Assembly: GCA_045538685.1 (NCBI GenBank) | Contig: JAZSRX010000034.1 | Coordinates: 11,111 to 75,110, forward strand | Source of the DNA: Eubacteriales bacterium | GTDB lineage: Bacteria; Bacillota; Clostridia; Oscillospirales; CAG-272 | Length of the DNA: 64,000 bases | Direction: 5' to 3' | Part shown: positions 2,371 through 60,141 of the stretch, piece by piece | Numbering within the stretch: the first letter of the stretch is position 1 | Layout: every line of letters starts with the position of its first letter | Translations under genes and position numbers: made by a program | The notes under the pieces: generated by a model | Database searches by the model: none | What the model was told of the DNA's origin: nothing | Seen by the model: only the letters and a program-made list of their open reading frames with translations

Positions 2371-3186
2371 TTATTTCTGATCCTGCCGTTTTATCGGCTT
2401 ATCAACAGTCCAATCGGACAAAGTGGCCTTTTTGCTGACCGACCACGTTACAGTTTCGGGCACTCCGCAATAGGAACAGCAGGAGTGAGGTGAGGATAAA
2501 AATTCAATTACCCTCGCACCGTCTAAATCTGCGTCAAAAATATTAAGCTTTGACTCGCTCATATCCATTTTAAAATCAAAGTATTCTTCCGCCGCGTCCT
2601 GAAGCTGAGCAAGACAGCAATAGCTTATGTATTCTCCGCACAGGATATAGCAGTTTTTTGAGCCGCAGCTCTCCCAGGCGGTTTTTGCATCAGACAACGG
2701 CTCTGAAAGAAGTCTTTTTCGAAACTCGGTTATTGGCTCTGAAAGGTAAAACAGTGCCTTGTTCTGCCGAAGCTTCGAGATAAGCTTGTCCTTTATTTTT
2801 GAGGTTGGGGCATACTGTGATATATCGAAAATTGCCCCCTCGCCTGCCAGGGAAAGAATCACAGAATCATCAAGATTAATAATCGGCAGACCGTTTGTAA
2901 CCAGCTTTATTTCTGATTTCGGGAAGGTTTTTCTCGTAAGCTTTACAAAGCTTACTATCTCGGGGTGCAAAAGCGGCTCGCCACCGAGAAGTCTGATAAC
3001 CTCTATGTTTTCGAAAAGAGAGGAGAGACGCAAAATACCCTTTTCAAACTCGCCAATGTCTAAAAAGCACTCTCGCTCTACGTTGGAAAGATGAGAACAG
3101 CATTTGCATTTCAGATTACAGTGCTTTACAATCGGTATTTCAATATAGGGCAAAATCGGTTTTATTTTTTCTTTCACTATTCTCAT
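2371..3186 (-). CDS. Radical SAM enzyme, short form (271 aa)
   Basis: IVKHCNLKCKCCSH triad, LLGGEPLLHPE, C-terminal Cys cluster (CGSKNCYILC...YCC...HSCCSYCG). Confidence 0.8.
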   Translation of the reverse strand: MRIVKEKIKPILPYIEIPIVKHCNLKCKCCSHLSNVERECFLDIGEFEKGILRLSSLFENIEVIRLLGGEPLLHPEIVSFVKLTRKTFPKSEIKLVTNGLPIINLDDSVILSLAGEGAIFDISQYAPTSKIKDKLISKLRQNKALFYLSEPITEFRKRLLSEPLSDAKTAWESCGSKNCYILCGEYISYCCLAQLQDAAEEYFDFKMDMSESKLNIFDADLDGARVIEFLSSPHSCCSYCGVPETVTWSVSKKATLSDWTVDKPIKRQDQK

Positions 3187-3203
3187 CTCCTTTCTTCAAT
3201 AAA

Positions 3204-4673
3204 TCAATTTCCGGGTTTGATTTTCAAAAACTGCAGCTGCCCGGTCTCTGCCAGAACGCAACCGAGACAGCACTCGGGAAGATAGCCCGAATAAAAGATT
3301 TCACGCATTTTTCGGGATATTTCTCCGTTCCATATTTCTTTAAAATCTGTATTTTGATTAATTTGTCCGGTTTTATATATTCTGCGGCTGCAACAAACAC
3401 TTGCACTTCCGTCAAGGGCAATGTATGCCTGATTTAACAGCCAATCGCAAATTCCGAGACATCTAACCTTTGAGGGCTTTATTTCAAGCTTTTTGTCGGT
3501 ATTCTGACCAAGCTTTTTATACAGCTCTTTTTCTTCCTCATACATAATTTTTTCTTTTCCGTCGGGACTTTCGGCGGTTATGCTGTTCATTAAAAGAAAC
3601 TCTTTTTCTACCGCCTCATTCCACTCTCCTGCCCCCTCTGCAAAGGGTACGGGGCAGATAACCTCAATGCCGATTTCCCGTCCTCGTTTATATGCCAGCT
3701 GACAGAAATAATTTAAAACCAAGGGATAGTTTGACATTGCGTCTCTTTCGTTTCTTAACACACTATTGGGTGTCATATTGTGGAATATCACCTGATTTAC
3801 ATTAACCGACCTTGCAAAATCCACTATTTTTTCAAGCTCTGTTATGTTCTGTCGCATCAGCACAACGGTTATTTCTTTATACAAATCGGGACAGCGACGG
3901 GACAAAAGCTCTATATTGGAGCATACATCTTCAAACTTTAAGCCACGCCTTATGTATTCAAAGGTCTCTTTTGTTCCACCGTCAAGGGAAATCTGAATAT
4001 TGGAAAAATGTCTGTCTATCAGGTCAAGACGCTTCCCGTCAAGCAGGGACAAATTTGTTGTGGCGGATATTTTCACACCGTACATAGCATATCTTTCAAT
4101 CACGTTTGAAATTTCGGGGTGCAAAAGCGGCTCGCCCATTCCCTGAAGCCCCACAACATTACAGAACCTTAATGTCGGCTCAATATTTGATATCATATCA
4201 AAATCCAGATGTCTTGCGTCTTTATTGTGCGTATAAAAATGACTGCACATAACGCATCTTGCATTGCAAAAGCTTGTGGTTTCCATCTGGATATAGGAGG
4301 GCATTCCGCATTGAACCGCCCTGTGCTTTACAAAGTCAAAGAATATAAGCGACTCATTGCAGAGCTTTACCCCTTTTAAGTTGCCGTTAAGAGAAAATCT
4401 TTTAATATCGGATATTATCTCATCTTCAAGGGCAAGAAAAAACAGCTTTGACTCTGTGAGAAAATACAGATTTTTGTCGGGGATGTCAGAAAGCAATGCT
4501 TGGTCATAGACAACACGTGACAAATAGCTTTTGTCAAAAATCATTGATGAGTTTTTTCTGTCATTTTCATTTATCTCGGCTAAGCTTTTTGCGATTTTTA
4601 TGTCCTCGCTTCCGAAAAGCTCTTTTGCTGTGTCAAGCCGTTTATCATCAAGTGTGAATAAATAACTTTGCAT
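3204..4673 (-). CDS. Radical SAM/SPASM-type enzyme, long form (489 aa)
   Basis: The ORF-track start at 4679 is GTG; ATG at 4673 follows AAGAGGTG. TSFCNARCVMCSH, LQGMGEPLLHP, C-terminal CLGICDW...SVCCS...ECCLGCVL; ~130 aa N-terminal extension. Confidence 0.85.
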   Translation of the reverse strand: MQSYLFTLDDKRLDTAKELFGSEDIKIAKSLAEINENDRKNSSMIFDKSYLSRVVYDQALLSDIPDKNLYFLTESKLFFLALEDEIISDIKRFSLNGNLKGVKLCNESLIFFDFVKHRAVQCGMPSYIQMETTSFCNARCVMCSHFYTHNKDARHLDFDMISNIEPTLRFCNVVGLQGMGEPLLHPEISNVIERYAMYGVKISATTNLSLLDGKRLDLIDRHFSNIQISLDGGTKETFEYIRRGLKFEDVCSNIELLSRRCPDLYKEITVVLMRQNITELEKIVDFARSVNVNQVIFHNMTPNSVLRNERDAMSNYPLVLNYFCQLAYKRGREIGIEVICPVPFAEGAGEWNEAVEKEFLLMNSITAESPDGKEKIMYEEEKELYKKLGQNTDKKLEIKPSKVRCLGICDWLLNQAYIALDGSASVCCSRRIYKTGQINQNTDFKEIWNGEISRKMREIFYSGYLPECCLGCVLAETGQLQFLKIKPGN

Positions 4674-31990: not shown

Positions 31991-32008
31991 ATTCTTACTC
32001 CTTTCTTT

Positions 32009-32260
32009 TGAGTGCAGAGTTTCTTTATTAAATCACTCGCACTAATCTGTCATCCCGAGCGGTAGGAACATCACTCGAAGACGAAACCTCTCATCGAGGG
32101 ATCTCCGTGTAGGATCCTTTTTCCTTTTAGACTTTGGCAAGTGAGAATTTAGAAAAAATCATCCTTGTCAGCGTCTGAACTTGCGTGAGGTTCGAAAAAG
32201 GAGATCCCTCGCACAGAGCCCTTAGTCTCCTCCCCGGGTTTGTGCCGCTCGGGATGACAA
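32009..32260 (-). mobile_element. MITE/REP-like nested-palindrome element, inverted relative to the 56-kb and 58.6-kb copies (core 32047-32259)
   Basis: TIRs CTGTCATCCCGAGCGGTAG ... GCCGCTCGGGATGACAA. The reverse complement of the core aligns along its whole length with 56077-56293. Confidence 0.8.
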
Positions 32261-32272
32261 ATAAGAGTGGGA

Positions 32273-32693
32273 GAGAACGCGGATTATAGCCAAAGCATCA
32301 AAGCCGCATCCGACGAAGAGATTTTGAGATAAAATTCGTGGCTCTCAATCCGAAGCTGTAGTTACCTACTGCGAGTGATTGAAAACGCGGATTATAGCCA
32401 AAGCATCAAAGCCGCATCTGACGAAGAGATTTTGAGGATAGATTGTCGAATGTGACCCGAAGGCGTAGTTACCTACTGCGAGTGATTGAGAACACGGATT
32501 ATAGCCAAAGCATCAAAGCCGCATCCGACGAAGAGATTTTGAGATAGAATTCATGGCTCTCAATCCGAAGCTGTAATTTTACCTACTGCGAGTGATTGAG
32601 AACGCGGATTATAGTCAAAGCATCAAAGCCGCATCTGACGAAGAGATTTTGAGGATAGATTGTCGAATGTGACCCGAAGGCGTAGTTACCTAC
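32273..32693. repeat. Tandem array of four ~108-nt units in A-B-A-B order (higher-order period ~215 nt), plus a degenerate fifth partial unit to ~32742
   Basis: Units start at 32273, 32381, 32488 and 32598. Shared core GAGAACGCGGATTATAGCCAAAGCATCAAAGCCGCATCYGACGAAGAGATTTTGAG...GTAGTTACCTACTGCGAGTGATT. No ORF of 60 aa or more. Confidence 0.9.
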
Positions 32694-55671: not shown

Positions 55672-56028
55672 ATGGCAAATTACAGACGAGGAAGAATAAA
55701 CGACGCAGTGGCTGAGGAGCTTGCAATTGCATTGAGAGAGGTTCGCGAGCCCAAGGTTATAGACAATTTTGTAAGCATTACACGTGCGGAAATCGCACCC
55801 GACCTTCGCAACGGAACTATTTATTTTTCTTGTATGGGTGACTCTAAGGAGGCACTTGAAGGACTTAAAAAGTGTACGGGAATGCTTCGTCATCACCTGG
55901 CGGTAACGCTTAATCTTCGTATCACACCCGAGCTTCGTTTCATAAAAGACGGCTCTATCGAACACGGTGCAAAAATCGCCAAATTCCTTGAGGAGATTAA
56001 CTCTAAAAAAGAGGAAAATAATTTTTGA
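55672..56028 (+). CDS. rbfA: Ribosome-binding factor A
   Basis: ATG 55672 follows AAGGAGGA; MANYRRGRINDAVAEELAIALRE. Confidence 0.85.
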   Translation: MANYRRGRINDAVAEELAIALREVREPKVIDNFVSITRAEIAPDLRNGTIYFSCMGDSKEALEGLKKCTGMLRHHLAVTLNLRITPELRFIKDGSIEHGAKIAKFLEEINSKKEENNF

Positions 56029-56339
56029 GTTCAGAGTTCAGAGTGCAAGTTTCTTTATTAAATCATTCGCACAAATCTGTCATCCCGAGCGGTAGAGACC
56101 CAGGGCGAAGACTAAGAGCTTTGTGCGAGGGATCTCCTTTTTCGAACCGTTTGCAAGTTCAGACGCTGACAAGGATAGTTTCCTTTCTAAATTCTCACTT
56201 GCCAAAGCCTAAAAGGAAAGAGGCTCCCACACGGAGATCCCTCGCTCTGCAATTTGTACCTTCGAATAACGTACCTACCGCTCGGGATGACAGATAAGAG
56301 CGAACAAGGAGTGAAGTTACAACTCTGAACTCTGCTCTC
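56025..56339 (+). mobile_element. MITE/REP-like nested-palindrome element, most complete copy (core 56077-56293; outer arms carry inverted heptamer arrays)
   Basis: 19-nt TIRs CTGTCATCCCGAGCGGTAG / CTACCGCTCGGGATGACAG; internal inverted GAGGGATCTCC / GGAGATCCCTC; left arm GAGTTCAGAGTTCAGAGTGCA versus right arm CTCTGAACTCTGCTCTCC. Confidence 0.85.
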
Positions 56340-56434
56340 CAACAGTTTCTCATAAAACACAACCACACCAATCTGTAATCCCAGGCGATACAGATTTACA
56401 AAATACCCGAGTTTTAAACAGGGAGGACACGAAA

Positions 56435-57313
56435 ATGAAAAAAATTACAAAAGCAATAATTCCGGCGGCGGGGCTTGGCACAAGAATGTTGCCTGTTTCT
56501 GCGGCAGTTTGCAAGGAAATGCTGCCCATAGTTGATCTGCCTGCAATCTGTCATCTTGTAGAAGAGGCGGCAAGCTGCGGCATCACCGACATTCTTATAA
56601 TAACCAATCGCGGCAAGGATATTATGGAGGACTTTTTCGACTTTTCTCCCGAATATGAGGCCGCACTTGCAGCAAAGGGCAACCTTTCGGAGATCGAAAG
56701 ACTTCGTGAGATTGCCGATATGGCAAACATCTATTTTTTAAGGCAGAAGGAGACTCTCGGCCTTGGCCACGCGGTTGGCAGAGCCAGAAGCTTTATCGGT
56801 GACGAGCCCTTTATCGTTATGTATGGCGACGATATAATCTTCTCGGATATTCCTGTTTGCGGTCAGCTTATGGAAGTGTACGAAAAGTACGGACGTCCTG
56901 TTGTTGGTGTTAAGCCGGTAAGCTGGGATTTGGTCAGAAAATACTGCTCGCTGAAGGTTGATGCCATACCCGGCGAGGACAGGGTTACATACTGCACCGA
57001 TATGATTGAAAAACCAAAGGCGGGACAGGAGTTTTCTAACCTTTCTATCCTTGGCAGAGTGCTTTTGACACCCGATGTTTTTGATATTATAGATAATCTT
57101 GAGCCGGGAGCAGGCGGTGAATATCAGCTTACCGATGCCATTAAGAAGATGGCTCGCGACGGCGGTGTTTATGCCCTTGAATTTGAGGGCGACAGATACG
57201 ATCTCGGCTCCAAGTTTGGCTTCCTCAAGGCGAATATTGTAAAGGGGCTTGAACACCCCGAAACAAAGGACGATCTGAGAGAGTTTATAAAGGAAATTGC
57301 GAAGAAAATATAG
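56435..57313 (+). CDS. galU: UTP--glucose-1-phosphate uridylyltransferase
   Basis: 292 aa; AIIPAAGLGTRMLP... Confidence 0.9.
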   Translation: MKKITKAIIPAAGLGTRMLPVSAAVCKEMLPIVDLPAICHLVEEAASCGITDILIITNRGKDIMEDFFDFSPEYEAALAAKGNLSEIERLREIADMANIYFLRQKETLGLGHAVGRARSFIGDEPFIVMYGDDIIFSDIPVCGQLMEVYEKYGRPVVGVKPVSWDLVRKYCSLKVDAIPGEDRVTYCTDMIEKPKAGQEFSNLSILGRVLLTPDVFDIIDNLEPGAGGEYQLTDAIKKMARDGGVYALEFEGDRYDLGSKFGFLKANIVKGLEHPETKDDLREFIKEIAKKI

Positions 57314-57318
57314 ATTAT

Positions 57319-57531
57319 TGAGTTCAGAGTTCAGGTGCAGAGTTCAGAGTGCAAAGTTAATAGCTGTGAATGTGCTTACTTAAAAGAATCGAATTTGCCG
57401 TAGACTTTCACGCGGAAATTATGCTCTATAATCCGTACTTCGAACAATGCACCTACCGCTCGGAACAACAAATCTGTGCGAACAAGGAGTGAGGTTGCAA
57501 CTCTGCACTCTGCACTCTGCATTCTGCACTC
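57319..57531 (+). mobile_element. Degenerate copy of the same element (both heptamer arms and the right TIR region retained, left core lost)
   Basis: 57323-57356 TTCAGAG-type units; 57440-57500 aligns with 56258-56322 (CTTCGAA.AA.G.ACCTACCGCTCGG...GCGAACAAGGAGTGA.GTT.CAACTCTG); 57501-57531 is CTCTGCA x4. Confidence 0.7.
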
Positions 57532-57545
57532 AAAAGAGGTTTATT

Positions 57546-57992
57546 ATGGAAATCAGACGGACTATACCTGACGACGTGTCGGCGATTGTCGAAATGGAAA
57601 ATAATATTTTTGGAATTCCCTTTACCGAGAGAGACGTTCTCTCCTGCGTATGCTCTGACACGGGAATGTGCTTTACCGCACTTGATGAGGGACGGCCCAT
57701 AGCATATATTCTTGGCAAAAAAATTCTGCCCGAAGCAGAGATTTACCGCATTGCCGTCAGGGAGGACAAGCGTCAAAGAGGCATTGGCTATCGCCTGCTT
57801 TCCTATGCCCTGAAAACCGAGGGAGGCAACGGTGTGGAGACGGTGTTTCTTGAAGTGCGTTCAAAAAACGCAGCCGCCAGAGCACTTTACAATGGCTATG
57901 GCTTTGAGGAAATCGGCATACGAAAAAATTACTATCAAAAGCCGAATGACGACGCAATTGTTATGATTAAGGACAACGGCTCTTCCGTATAA
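57546..57992 (+). CDS. rimI: Ribosomal-protein-alanine N-acetyltransferase (GNAT)
   Basis: ATG 57546 follows AAAGAGG (the ORF-track start at 57447 lies inside the repeat element). RQRGIGYRLL acetyl-CoA motif; sits upstream of tsaD. Confidence 0.75.
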   Translation: MEIRRTIPDDVSAIVEMENNIFGIPFTERDVLSCVCSDTGMCFTALDEGRPIAYILGKKILPEAEIYRIAVREDKRQRGIGYRLLSYALKTEGGNGVETVFLEVRSKNAAARALYNGYGFEEIGIRKNYYQKPNDDAIVMIKDNGSSV

Positions 57993-58045
57993 CCAAAACA
58001 TCTTCAATTCACAACGGTTTTGCCGAGGGACGAAGATCACCCTTA

Positions 58046-58168
58046 CCAAAATCTAAAAGGCAAGAGCCACCCACACGGAGATCCCTCGACGAGAGGTTTC
58101 GTCTTCGAACAATGTGCCTGTCGCTCGGGATGACAGATTGGGCTGAACTGATTGTCTGAAATTTTATA
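58046..58168 (+). repeat. 123-nt direct repeat, left copy (right half of the MITE-like element plus ~30 nt of flank)
   Basis: Identical to 58865-58987 except for 2 mismatches, by my count. Confidence 0.9.
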
Positions 58169-58214
58169 GCAATGTATCATTATTAAGAATTGATTGATGT
58201 TCAAGAGGTAGATT

Positions 58215-58496
58215 ATGTATTACGTATATATTTTGACAAATAAAAGCAACAAAGTAATGTACGTAGGTGTGACGAACGATCTTTCTCGAAGAATGTGGGA
58301 ACATAAAAGTAAGATTTTTGACGGCTTTACCAAGTATTATCAAGTACATAAACTTGTTTATTTCGAGGAATTTTTCGAAATAAATGATGCCATTGCACGA
58401 GAAAAACAGATTAAAGGATGGTCGAGAGAAAAGAAAAACAATCTTGTTAAGTCAAAAAATCCCGATTTCTCTGATTGGAGCGACTCCTTAATATAA
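58215..58496 (+). CDS. GIY-YIG nuclease-family protein (93 aa)
   Basis: MYYVYILTNKSNKVMYVGVTNDLSRRMWEHK...REKQIKGWSREKK. Confidence 0.85.
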   Translation: MYYVYILTNKSNKVMYVGVTNDLSRRMWEHKSKIFDGFTKYYQVHKLVYFEEFFEINDAIAREKQIKGWSREKKNNLVKSKNPDFSDWSDSLI

Positions 58497-58572
58497 ATTG
58501 CTTTTACTCTTGACGATTTGTATTTAGTAATCAGTACAATTCTTTCATACCAAAAAAATTGTTTGCTCTTAT

Positions 58573-58788
58573 CTGTCATCCCGAGCGGTAGAGGCCCGGG
58601 ACGGAGACTGAGAGCGTTGTGCGAGGGATCTCCTTTTTCGAACCTCACGCAAATTCAGACTCTGACAAAGATAGTTTCCTTTCTAAAATCACCTTTGCCG
58701 AAGACTAAAAGATAAAAGGCACCCACACGGAGATCCCTCGACGAGAGGTTTCGTCTTCGAGCAACGTGCCTATCGCTCGGGATGACAG
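58573..58788 (+). mobile_element. MITE/REP-like element core, full copy
   Basis: TIRs CTGTCATCCCGAGCGGTAG / CTATCGCTCGGGATGACAG; collinear with 56077-56293. Confidence 0.85.
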
Positions 58789-58864
58789 ATAAGAGCTAAC
58801 ATAAATAAAAAGCTTATTTCCAGAGAGAGCTGCCACCACGGGTGGCTGAGGTATTGCTTAGTTG

Positions 58865-58987
58865 CCAAAATCTAAAAGGCAAGAGCCACCCACACGGAGA
58901 TCCCTCGACGAGAGGTTTCGTCTTCGAACAATGTGGCTATCGCTCGGGATGACAGATTGGGCTGAACTGATTGTCTGAAATTTTATA
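58865..58987 (+). repeat. 123-nt direct repeat, right copy
   Basis: See 58046-58168. Confidence 0.9.
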
Positions 58988-59049
58988 AATAACATTTTAA
59001 TAACGCAAATTTATACTCTAAATTCTTGCACCTATTTTTTGGAGGAAAA

Positions 59050-60141
59050 ATGAATATTCTTGCTTTTGAAAGCTCTTGTGACGAGACAAGTGCGGCGGTT
59101 GTGGTCGCAGGTCGGGGCTTTAAGGTAAAATCAAATATAATCGCATCCCAGGTTGACACCCACCGACTTTACGGCGGAGTTGTGCCCGAGATAGCAAGTC
59201 GAGCACACACAGAGGCAATCTCTCGCATTACATACGAGGCACTTGAACAGGCGAATATGACCCTTAGTGACATAGATCTTGTTGCCGTTACCGCAAATCC
59301 CGGACTTATCGGTGCTTTGCTTGTGGGAGTTAATTTTGCAAAGGCATTGGCGGCGGCAAACAACATTCCTCTTGTGGCGGTTGACCACATAAAAGGACAT
59401 ATTGCCTCCTGCTACTTAGGCGGCAAGGGAAACGTGGCAAAGCCACCCTTTATCGCACTTGCGGCATCGGGCGGACACACCGCGATATACCGTGTTGAAA
59501 GCCACACCGAGCTTTACATAATCGGCACCACACGTGATGATGCCATCGGCGAGTCCTTTGACAAGATAGGAAGAATTATCGGTATTCCCTACCCTGCGGG
59601 ACGCGGATTTGATGCCCTTTCGAAAGAGGGCTTTATTAAGGCGACGGGCGACGAAGAAAACTTCTATTCAAAATACAAAAAGAGCCCCGCTTACAAGGAC
59701 AGAGAAATGGCTCTTCCCTCTCCTGCACTGAATGACGGAACGCTTGATTTCTCCTTCTCGGGACTGAAAACGGCGGCTATAAACCTGCTTCACCGATATG
59801 AGCAGACGGGACGTGAGTTTGACAGGTCGCTTTTCGCCGCAAGATACACCTTTGAGGCGGTTGAGGCAGTGGCAAAAAAGCTTTCGGCGGCACTTGACCG
59901 TTATCCGGGCCACGATCTTTGTATTGCAGGCGGAGTGGCGGCAAACTCTCATCTGAGACGTCGTGCTTTGGAGGTGGCGAAGGAGCACGGAGTTAATCTG
60001 TTTATTCCCACACCCGATCTTTGCGGTGACAACGCGGCTATGATCGGAGCCCAGGCATACTATGAATACAAGAAGGGCAATCTTGCAAGCTCATCGCTGA
60101 ATGCAAGTGCTCTTGACACAATAAAACAGGAAAAGGTATAA
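59050..60141 (+). CDS. tsaD: tRNA N6-adenosine threonylcarbamoyltransferase
   Basis: ATG 59050 follows GGAGGA; MNILAFESSCDETSAAVV...GVAANSHLR. Confidence 0.95.
   Translation: MNILAFESSCDETSAAVVVAGRGFKVKSNIIASQVDTHRLYGGVVPEIASRAHTEAISRITYEALEQANMTLSDIDLVAVTANPGLIGALLVGVNFAKALAAANNIPLVAVDHIKGHIASCYLGGKGNVAKPPFIALAASGGHTAIYRVESHTELYIIGTTRDDAIGESFDKIGRIIGIPYPAGRGFDALSKEGFIKATGDEENFYSKYKKSPAYKDREMALPSPALNDGTLDFSFSGLKTAAINLLHRYEQTGREFDRSLFAARYTFEAVEAVAKKLSAALDRYPGHDLCIAGGVAANSHLRRRALEVAKEHGVNLFIPTPDLCGDNAAMIGAQAYYEYKKGNLASSSLNASALDTIKQEKV

Follow-up and report, generated by a model that had tools for sequence, protein, structure and literature searches.

The window analysed here is the whole 64,000-nucleotide (nt) stretch of contig JAZSRX010000034.1 from a Eubacteriales bacterium, and the subject of this analysis is the junction between two of its genes, rimI and tsaD. 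These genes are separated by a small gene for a GIY-YIG nuclease (ssn), a complete palindromic element that resembles a miniature transposable element with inverted repeats (MITE), and two direct repeats that each carry one arm of that element (Table 1). It is quite likely that a single overall explanation covers these parts, namely a member of the Ssn nuclease family, a gene-less palindromic element and an 819-bp unit that was added at this site. The present analysis itself shows how the locus is built, that the site is filled here and empty in a relative, that the gene and the repeat go together and that the gene can stand at the palindrome centre; cutting specific to single-stranded DNA (ssDNA) and tolerance of loop insertions are taken from published work on Ssn enzymes (Chenal et al., Nat Commun 2025, PMC11893778).

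A repeat search of the window returned the direct repeats as 58043-58168 and 58862-58987 (126 nt, 98% identity). In the 123-nt frame used in Table 1 they differ at two positions, and the three additional bases (58043-58045 and 58862-58864) read TTA and TTG, respectively. Each repeat extends from near the palindrome centre through the right arm of the element and on into a 29-nt flank, GGGCTGAACTGATTGTCTGAAATTTTATA, which occurs exactly twice in the window against zero expected occurrences. An nhmmer profile of the full element copies places positions 123-232 at 58032-58141 and positions 128-232 at 58856-58960, so that both half-elements start at the palindrome centre (positions 123 and 128 in a profile of about 237). 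The 93-aa GIY-YIG open reading frame (ORF) and one full element are found in the 696 nt that separate the repeats.

The original prediction had described this layout from the letters alone. Its 123-nt direct repeats with two mismatches were recovered by the repeat search, its reading of each repeat as the right half of the element plus flank agrees with the nhmmer matches, and the GIY-YIG gene and complete MITE core that it placed between them were confirmed by PF01541 and by 32-nt terminal inverted repeats. It had also named rimI and tsaD as usual neighbours in the tsaE-tsaB-rimI-tsaD operon of Firmicutes. The downstream neighbour is indeed tsaD and the GNAT acetyltransferase gene is consistent with rimI, but rbfA and a nucleotidyltransferase gene (galU in the gene row rbfA-galU-rimI-tsaD) precede rimI instead of tsaE and tsaB. 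A rimI-consistent GNAT gene also lies directly upstream of tsaD in the related loci L087, L090, L091, L101 and L102.

Table 1. Features of the rimI-tsaD junction and other copies of the palindromic element in the window.
Feature	Coordinates	Strand	Details
Full element copy, rbfA-nucleotidyltransferase spacer	56066..56304	+	Repeat search, hairpin scan, nhmmer
Full element copy, opposite orientation	32036..32271	-	Hairpin scan, nhmmer
Degenerate right-arm remnant of the element, within the putative invertible segment	57435..57481	+	nhmmer E=1e-4
rimI-consistent GNAT acetyltransferase gene, 148 aa, upstream neighbour	57546..57992	+	Pfam Acetyltransf_1 E=2.5e-15
Centre remnant of truncated palindromic element, lacking the left hairpin arm	58020..58045	+	nhmmer match begins at 58032
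Left-hand direct repeat: right arm of the element, from palindrome centre to terminus (58139), then the 29-nt outer flank	58046..58168	+	
Expanded SRM hairpin, GTC-ATCCC-GAGCG[34 nt]CGA-GGGAT-C	58080..58134	-	Hairpin scan; motif blocks invariant in all copies
ssn-like gene, 93-aa single-domain GIY-YIG	58215..58496	+	PF01541; AGAGG 7 nt before ATG
Complete palindromic MITE-like element	58560..58801	+	SRM(+) 58575-58630, ~95-nt centre, SRM(-) 58732-58786
Spacer with small hairpin GCCACCACGGGTGGC	58802..58864	+	BLAST matches solely in same-species contigs
Direct repeat, right copy: right arm and same 29-nt flank	58865..58987	+	SRM(-) 58899-58953
tsaD, 363 aa, downstream neighbour	59050..60141	+	Pfam TsaD E=7e-78

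The nuclease and its hairpin repeats

Ssn proteins are single-domain GIY-YIG enzymes of about 94 aa (CDD cd10448) that bind an oriented hairpin repeat, called NTS in Neisseria and SRM generally, solely as ssDNA (Chenal et al., 2025). They cleave the SRM-bearing strand a few nt 5' of the hairpin, about 3-4 nt from the repeat in the case of SsnA, and the demonstrated role of the characterised enzymes is to limit transformation. The protein encoded at the junction matches PF01541 over residues 1-75 (E=1.3e-17), with no second domain found in Pfam. Residues Y5, Y16, R26, H30, E63 and N82 do not vary among the 15 homologues compared, which come from several phyla, and the spacing of Y5, Y16 and E63 is that of Y6, Y17 and E64, the residues mutated in SsnA (positions compared with Chenal et al., 2025). 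Thus, as in SsnA of Neisseria meningitidis, a small single-domain protein carries a conserved Tyr, Tyr, Glu spacing, and its sequence fits membership of the Ssn family of site-specific ssDNA endonucleases. The homologue family is large, with 4,249 cluster representatives at 50% identity (E≤1e-10). In the collections searched, the exact 93-aa protein is known from this locus alone, and its nearest other match has 75% identity; the species-representative genome collection and the metagenome scan contained no Ssn closer than 66% and no close paralogues. Among solved structures, the distant UPF0213 protein 1ZG2 comes nearest (E=4e-5), and the PDB sequence search and NCBIfam gave nothing informative past the GIY-YIG fold. 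Many homologues among the representatives P0241-P0390 are annotated at 110-170 aa around a matched domain of about 90 aa; the added length probably reflects ORF calls that read into flanking hairpin repeats, as in tails such as …DPSLRSG and …CHPEHSKGS.

An association between ssn genes and SRM repeats has already been published, with an SRM near 71% of Ssn homologues and on both sides in 42% (Chenal et al., 2025). The same association was found here in 80 loci from a species-representative genome collection (homologues 52-66% identical, from many phyla) and 80 metagenome loci, which were scanned for GTC-A-NNNN, a loop of 5-50 nt, the complementary NNNN-T and then C. One or more hairpins occur no further than 150 nt from the gene in 70 of the 80 genome loci and 66 of the 80 metagenome loci, or 136 of 160 together, which upholds the earlier suggestion of a link between the nuclease and this repeat family, published in 2025 as Ssn/SRM. 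Hairpin density falls from 8.1/kb near the gene to 0.32/kb at more than 1.5 kb in the genome loci, and from 7.6/kb to 0.20/kb at more than 0.7 kb in the metagenome loci. The canonical pair, with a plus-oriented motif upstream and a minus-oriented motif downstream, is present in 42/80 and 37/80 loci, respectively; in the genome loci GTCATyCTGAGCGAAGCGAAGrATC commonly stands upstream of the gene and its reverse complement downstream. Stems vary by locus (ATTCT, ATCCT, ATTCC, ATGCT, ATCCC and others) and the 3' side always matches, complementarity being required by the scan.

The element at the junction has terminal inverted repeats of 32 nt (58560-58591 and 58770-58801, 94% identity), measures about 240 bp (58563-58798 by nhmmer) and contains no ORF. 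Together with the two right halves in the direct repeats and one decayed remnant, the window holds three full copies. Each arm reads GTC-ATCCC-GAGCG-[~34 nt]-CGA-GGGAT-C-TCC, and the hairpin scan found eight window copies of GTC-ATCCC...GGGAT-C, each of 55-56 nt and every one inside a copy of the element. At the locus of a Berkiella homologue (L077), GTCATCCCGAGCAATGCGAGGGATC corresponds to the window motif minus the insert. Across copies from this species and from L087, L094, L095 and L103 the motif blocks are nearly invariant while the insert varies, and in the arms beside the gene of P0016, a 72%-identical homologue, ATTCT/AGAAT replaces ATCCC/GGGAT, a two-position change made on both sides of the stem. 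On these alignments, the MITE-like element is a predicted pair of inverted copies of the cognate SRM, each with a loop insertion of about 34 nt. As ssDNA, the complete element folds into a long hairpin (-54.7 kcal/mol, z=-7.7). The recognition blocks survive a 34-nt loop insertion, consistent with the published finding that SsnA tolerates loop removal, loop changes or extensions and a stem formed from two separate strands (Chenal et al., 2025); this tolerance bears on the use of Ssn enzymes as programmable ssDNA cutters. A known RNA family was considered as the identity of the element and ruled out by Rfam scans, which gave no match at gathering thresholds in the whole window and one chance-level snoRNA match at E≤1 in 55900-59100.

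A gene-carrying form of the element was seen among the loci of P0016 (L103-L112). L105 has, in this order and all in one orientation, a left half (177-304), ssn (342-623) and a right half (691-788); the halves align to the window elements, which places ssn at the centre of the palindrome. The element of about 240 bp is thus, as far as the alignment goes, the putative gene-less counterpart of a unit with ssn at its palindrome centre, and a gene-centred palindrome beside a gene-less one is the relationship expected of a gene-carrying element and its gene-less derivative. In common with MITEs, it is a small gene-less element with terminal inverted repeats, it has a gene-carrying relative (L105) and it is present in or absent from the intergenic spacers of related genomes. 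In L094 (75% homologue) and L095 (74%), the gene starts 54-70 nt after the end of a full element, and no element lies downstream; ssn is thus found 54-80 nt outside a right end in three organisms, including this species. At the P0016 locus, ssn stands between direct repeats of the right arm, which are 111 nt long, share 92% identity and lie 654 nt apart; further tandem arms follow at a 157-nt period. In L095, positions 2290-2680, before the element of the P0026 ssn, contain about three tandem copies of a unit of about 120 nt (…GTGGGGCTTCTCCTTGCATTTTTGCGCC…GGCGGTCTGCTATGCAGACTTCCAAAAATGCT…), two of which terminate in the left terminus of the element, TCTGTCATCCCGAGCGG.

The junction in relatives and in other strains

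Relatives were reached through a search for TsaD homologues. In L087, a sister lineage (TsaD 96% identical), rimI and tsaD are 242 nt apart, and their spacer lacks a nuclease gene. It holds a truncated element that has a single right arm, the 29-nt flank in a diverged form, and the tsaD leader. Element-free spacers of 34, 24, 30 and 37 nt separate the two genes in L101 (TsaD 91%), L090 (89%), L102 (89%) and L091 (88%), respectively. The rbfA-nucleotidyltransferase, nucleotidyltransferase-rimI and rimI-tsaD spacers of the window measure 406, 232 and 1057 nt, against 40-64, 1-65 and 24-37 nt in L090, L091 and L102.

Both repeats of the window are collinear with L087, the left one together with its left context and the right one together with its right context. 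The sequence at 58020-58045 corresponds to that following the rimI stop codon in L087, and the left repeat is 81% identical to L087 3815-3939; by this alignment the left copy is the presumed resident one, orthologous to the single copy of L087. The right repeat is continuous with the tsaD leader, whose L087 orthologue is 87% identical. Formally, therefore, the window differs from L087 by an 819-bp insertion with a 123-nt duplication. The single arm in L087 and the compact spacers in four more distant relatives indicate that the 819-bp unit is derived, through insertion or duplication. The unit of about 820 bp put forward in the original prediction is thus supported by a relative with a single repeat and no nuclease gene.

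Contigs of the same species from other samples (L001-L006) reproduce the arrangement. L003 and L004, which come from independent metagenome assemblies, span the entire region and match it base for base; L001, L002 and L005 extend from rimI over the left repeat and the gene, with the same arrangement, and L006 covers only the gene and its immediate flanks. Recurrence in independent assemblies excludes an assembly artefact. The arm-cassette-arm arrangement is fixed in the species, being present in 5/5 other contigs that cover the locus. Among these contigs the 282-nt ssn gene carries no substitutions, and a 1-nt deletion near the stop codon (58488-58490) in L003, L004, L005 and L006 shortens the protein to 91 aa.

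The age of the duplication can be approached from sequence identities. The two arms are about 98% identical to each other and 81% identical to the L087 arm. For comparison, identity is 90.6% for tsaD of the window and of L087 (third codon positions, 78%) and about 99.5% between strains of the species. On these figures, the arms were duplicated, or last homogenised, long after the split from L087 but before the species diversified. However, a CACACAG variant lies in the left repeat in L001 and L002 and in the right repeat in L003 and L004, which indicates that the two copies exchange sequence; this exchange weakens the dating and keeps a scenario of loss alive.

Possible gain, loss and mobility of the cassette

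The cassette was probably gained in the lineage of the window. In the proposed history, elements would have invaded the formerly compact spacers of the rbfA-galU-rimI-tsaD row in this clade, and a truncated copy (right arm plus flank) would have landed between rimI and tsaD in an ancestor shared with the L087 lineage. The window lineage would then have added the 819-bp unit, comprising ssn, the nested full element and a second arm with flank, to give arm-cassette-arm. The arms may extrude hairpins which, when single-stranded, could be nicked and so act as break- and recombination-prone sites; they may also duplicate locally and swap sequence by gene conversion. Entry of the cassette could have taken place in one event of break repair or template switching, and not in a classical transposase reaction. 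The original prediction had invoked recombination at the repeat element, which does not easily account for the duplication of the 29-nt flank along with the arm. This flank is resident sequence, diverged in L087, and a circle integrating by recombination at the arm, although it would produce arm-cassette-arm, would need to originate from this same locus; integration of a foreign circle is therefore disfavoured. An in-place event, either a staggered break with fill-in or template switching in replication, fits better.

The alternative is that arm-cassette-arm is ancestral and that recombination between the direct arms removed the cassette from L087, so that a solo arm was left behind, much as solo long terminal repeats (LTRs) arise, with the identity of about 98% between the arms here maintained by gene conversion. 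This course of events is possible, although the less probable of the two. Direct-repeat recombination predicts exactly the single-copy junction of L087, the sharing of left and right variants across strains shows that the copies exchange sequence, and the four compact outgroups cannot polarise the change. Furthermore, no close donor copy of the cassette was found in the collections searched, and BLAST of the cassette leader and of its 75-nt and 72-nt spacers against all sequences fetched returned same-species contigs only. Conversion would nonetheless have to be continuous for the arms to differ by about 2% from each other and by 19% from the L087 arm, and the same recombination should often delete the cassette, yet all five other contigs covering the locus retain it; loss also leaves the origin of the duplication unexplained. 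The arm-cassette-arm and single-arm forms follow the pattern of direct-repeat recombination known from solo LTRs and from integration or excision of the Campbell type, whereas the repeats here are 123 nt long, made up of bacterial hairpin-element sequence together with resident flank, and are not retroelement ends or an att site.

Besides the missing donor and the resident flank, several observations weigh against the overall explanation, in which the Ssn assignment comes through length, domain, residue spacing and hairpin context. The 55-nt motif alone, as ssDNA, is no more stable than shuffled sequence (z from -1.2 to +1.1), and the basal stem appears in the minimum-energy fold for 3/8 expanded copies. 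The printed SRM pattern, HGTCWYN(0-2)YYVSBRHN(0-5)WNVSBRGN(0-2)RNCYNB, has no match in the window and nine in the 80 genome loci, none less than 200 nt from the gene; this pattern suits Neisseria-type stems with loops of up to 5 nt and misses obvious short hairpins flanking the genes. The nearest hairpins to the window gene, 80 nt upstream and 78 nt downstream, are minus-oriented upstream and plus-oriented downstream, an arrangement found at 1/160 homologous loci, and a possible decayed plus motif immediately ahead of the gene (58172-58192, TGTATCATTATTAAGAATTGA) is not strong enough to be counted. In addition, the flanks of the three full copies, read directly, show no convincing target-site duplication. 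The locus shares with published Ssn/SRM systems an oriented hairpin (GTC, stem, C) that is multicopy, intergenic and clustered round the nuclease gene; Ssn homologues typically have a plus-oriented motif upstream and a minus-oriented motif downstream. The locus differs in that the hairpin carries a loop insertion of about 34 nt (55 nt against about 25-29 nt) and is built into a palindromic element of about 240 bp, and in that the gene stands outside the inverted pair and is flanked by two copies of a single arm in direct orientation. The host is an uncultured Clostridia-type organism, while published work concerns mainly Gram-negative bacteria.

Alternatively, the nuclease itself could drive the process. 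Nicks 5' of the hairpin on the GTC...ATC strand would seed directional copying of the right arm and insertion of the ssn cassette, and the direct repeat would be a long fill-in target duplication whose limits are set by a nick of the bottom strand beyond the arm and by a break in the centre of the palindrome. The right boundary of the repeat at 58168/58169 lies on the 5' side of the minus-strand SRM, the strand and side of Ssn cutting, and both half-elements begin at the palindrome centre. The position of ssn 54-80 nt outside a right end recurs in the loci of two close homologues, and right-arm direct repeats and tandem arrays recur round ssn in another organism; together, the centre-starting halves, the side of the boundary, ssn outside right ends and the P0016 arm repeats point to something systematic. 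The layout of repeat, gene and repeat has been likened to insertion sequences and to REP/RAYT (Chenal et al., 2025). Nevertheless, Ssn-driven insertion is unlikely: the boundary is 31 nt from the motif, against about 4 nt for the SsnA cut, the left boundary has no adjacent SRM, an excision product, circle or transposition has never been demonstrated for Ssn, and a single GIY-YIG domain without joining activity cannot alone complete transposition. That Ssn mobilises its repeats was put forward as a hypothesis by Chenal et al. (2025), who left open the mobile status and the multiplication of the repeats, and literature searches found no further paper on Ssn mobility.

The original prediction had proposed a mobilising or homing function for the nuclease. 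Mobilisation stands as a hypothesis only, and homing does not agree with single-domain nucleases that act on ssDNA only and limit transformation. Free-standing homing genes typically insert intergenically between conserved genes, and the position of ssn between conserved genes, together with a weak match to TIGR01453 (group I intron endonuclease; 25 bits against a cut-off of 56), would suit a homing endonuclease gene that landed independently and lies beside the repeats by coincidence. Such an origin is most improbable, given that the protein has 93 aa in a single domain without a DNA-binding domain, that the motif accompanies the gene in 136/160 homologous loci across phyla, and that the TIGR01453 match spans just 30 residues, far under the cut-off.

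The wider idea that Ssn-SRM units are active mobile elements, and not only a domesticated restriction system, with the filled and empty site here as a caught example, is doubtful on the present evidence. Under this idea, gene-carrying copies (left arm, ssn, right arm) would yield palindromic gene-less copies, and a strand-specific Ssn nick 5' of the hairpin would seed the directional duplication of the right arm and the insertion of the cassette. If correct, a GIY-YIG ssDNA nuclease would lie at the heart of a transposition-like mechanism that parallels IS200/IS605 and RAYT without being related to them. As here, REP/RAYT (REPIN) systems and IS200/IS605 combine one nuclease gene with short hairpin repeats that the enzyme recognises as ssDNA; they further share paired gene-less repeats scattered over intergenic regions and a nuclease gene flanked by its own repeats. 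However, RAYT and TnpA are HUH/Y1 enzymes that cut and rejoin, whereas Ssn, a hydrolase of the GIY-YIG type, is not known to have a joining activity, and mobilisation is demonstrated for IS200/IS605 and hypothesised only for Ssn. Membership of REP/RAYT was rejected on the same grounds, the protein being GIY-YIG and not HUH/Y1 (IS200-like), so that the resemblance is architectural only. The neisserial dRS3/NIME mosaic repeats and Correia-type MITEs are likewise composite intergenic repeats round a nuclease-bound hairpin and sites of recombination and local rearrangement; they belong to another sequence family and another host, and the gene-at-centre counterpart of the palindrome is seen directly here (L105). 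Irrespective of mechanism, the locus bears on the open question of how Ssn repeats spread, by providing a filled and an empty site at a conserved operon junction, gene-at-centre and gene-less forms of the same palindrome, and repeated direct duplication of one arm round ssn in two organisms. If no idea of mobility holds, it is one more Ssn/SRM locus, in a gut Clostridia-type genome.

Other repeats in the surrounding spacers

Further small repeats occur in and around this gene row. In L087, two direct repeats of about 110 nt (…CTCGCTGCGGCTCGGTCACGCTCGGGGTCTGACAGTCCACCGGACT…) lie in the same intergenic spacers, at 1842-2266 and 3146-3311, and L101 has arrays based on AATTCATG and GTGATAT at 792-923 and 1803-2034. 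The repeat families of these relatives are thus quite unlike those of the window, and it appears that small repeats in general can land in the spacers of this row. Elsewhere in the window, the element at 32036-32271 adjoins a tandem array at 32273-32693 (107-nt period, 3.9 copies, 83% matches) that can alternatively be read with a 217-nt period at 96%, its consensus starting GAGAACGCGGATTATAGCCAAAGCATCAAAGCCGCATCCGACGAAGAGATTTTGAGAT.

A segment of about 200 bp just before rimI (57320-57519) has the orientation of the window in L003 and L004 and the opposite orientation in L001 and L002 (minus strand, 96.5% identity). It is bounded by inverted repeats (57335-57366 and 57498-57529) made of inverted AGAGTTC/AGAGTGC heptamer runs, and looks like an invertible DNA segment ahead of rimI. 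Runs of the same heptamers occur at 56021-56048, 56322-56342, 57314-57354, 57498-57529 and 32008-32020, where they bracket the element at 56066-56304 and the invertible segment, with one run beside the copy at 32036. These runs may represent a second repeat family or the outer layer of the element.

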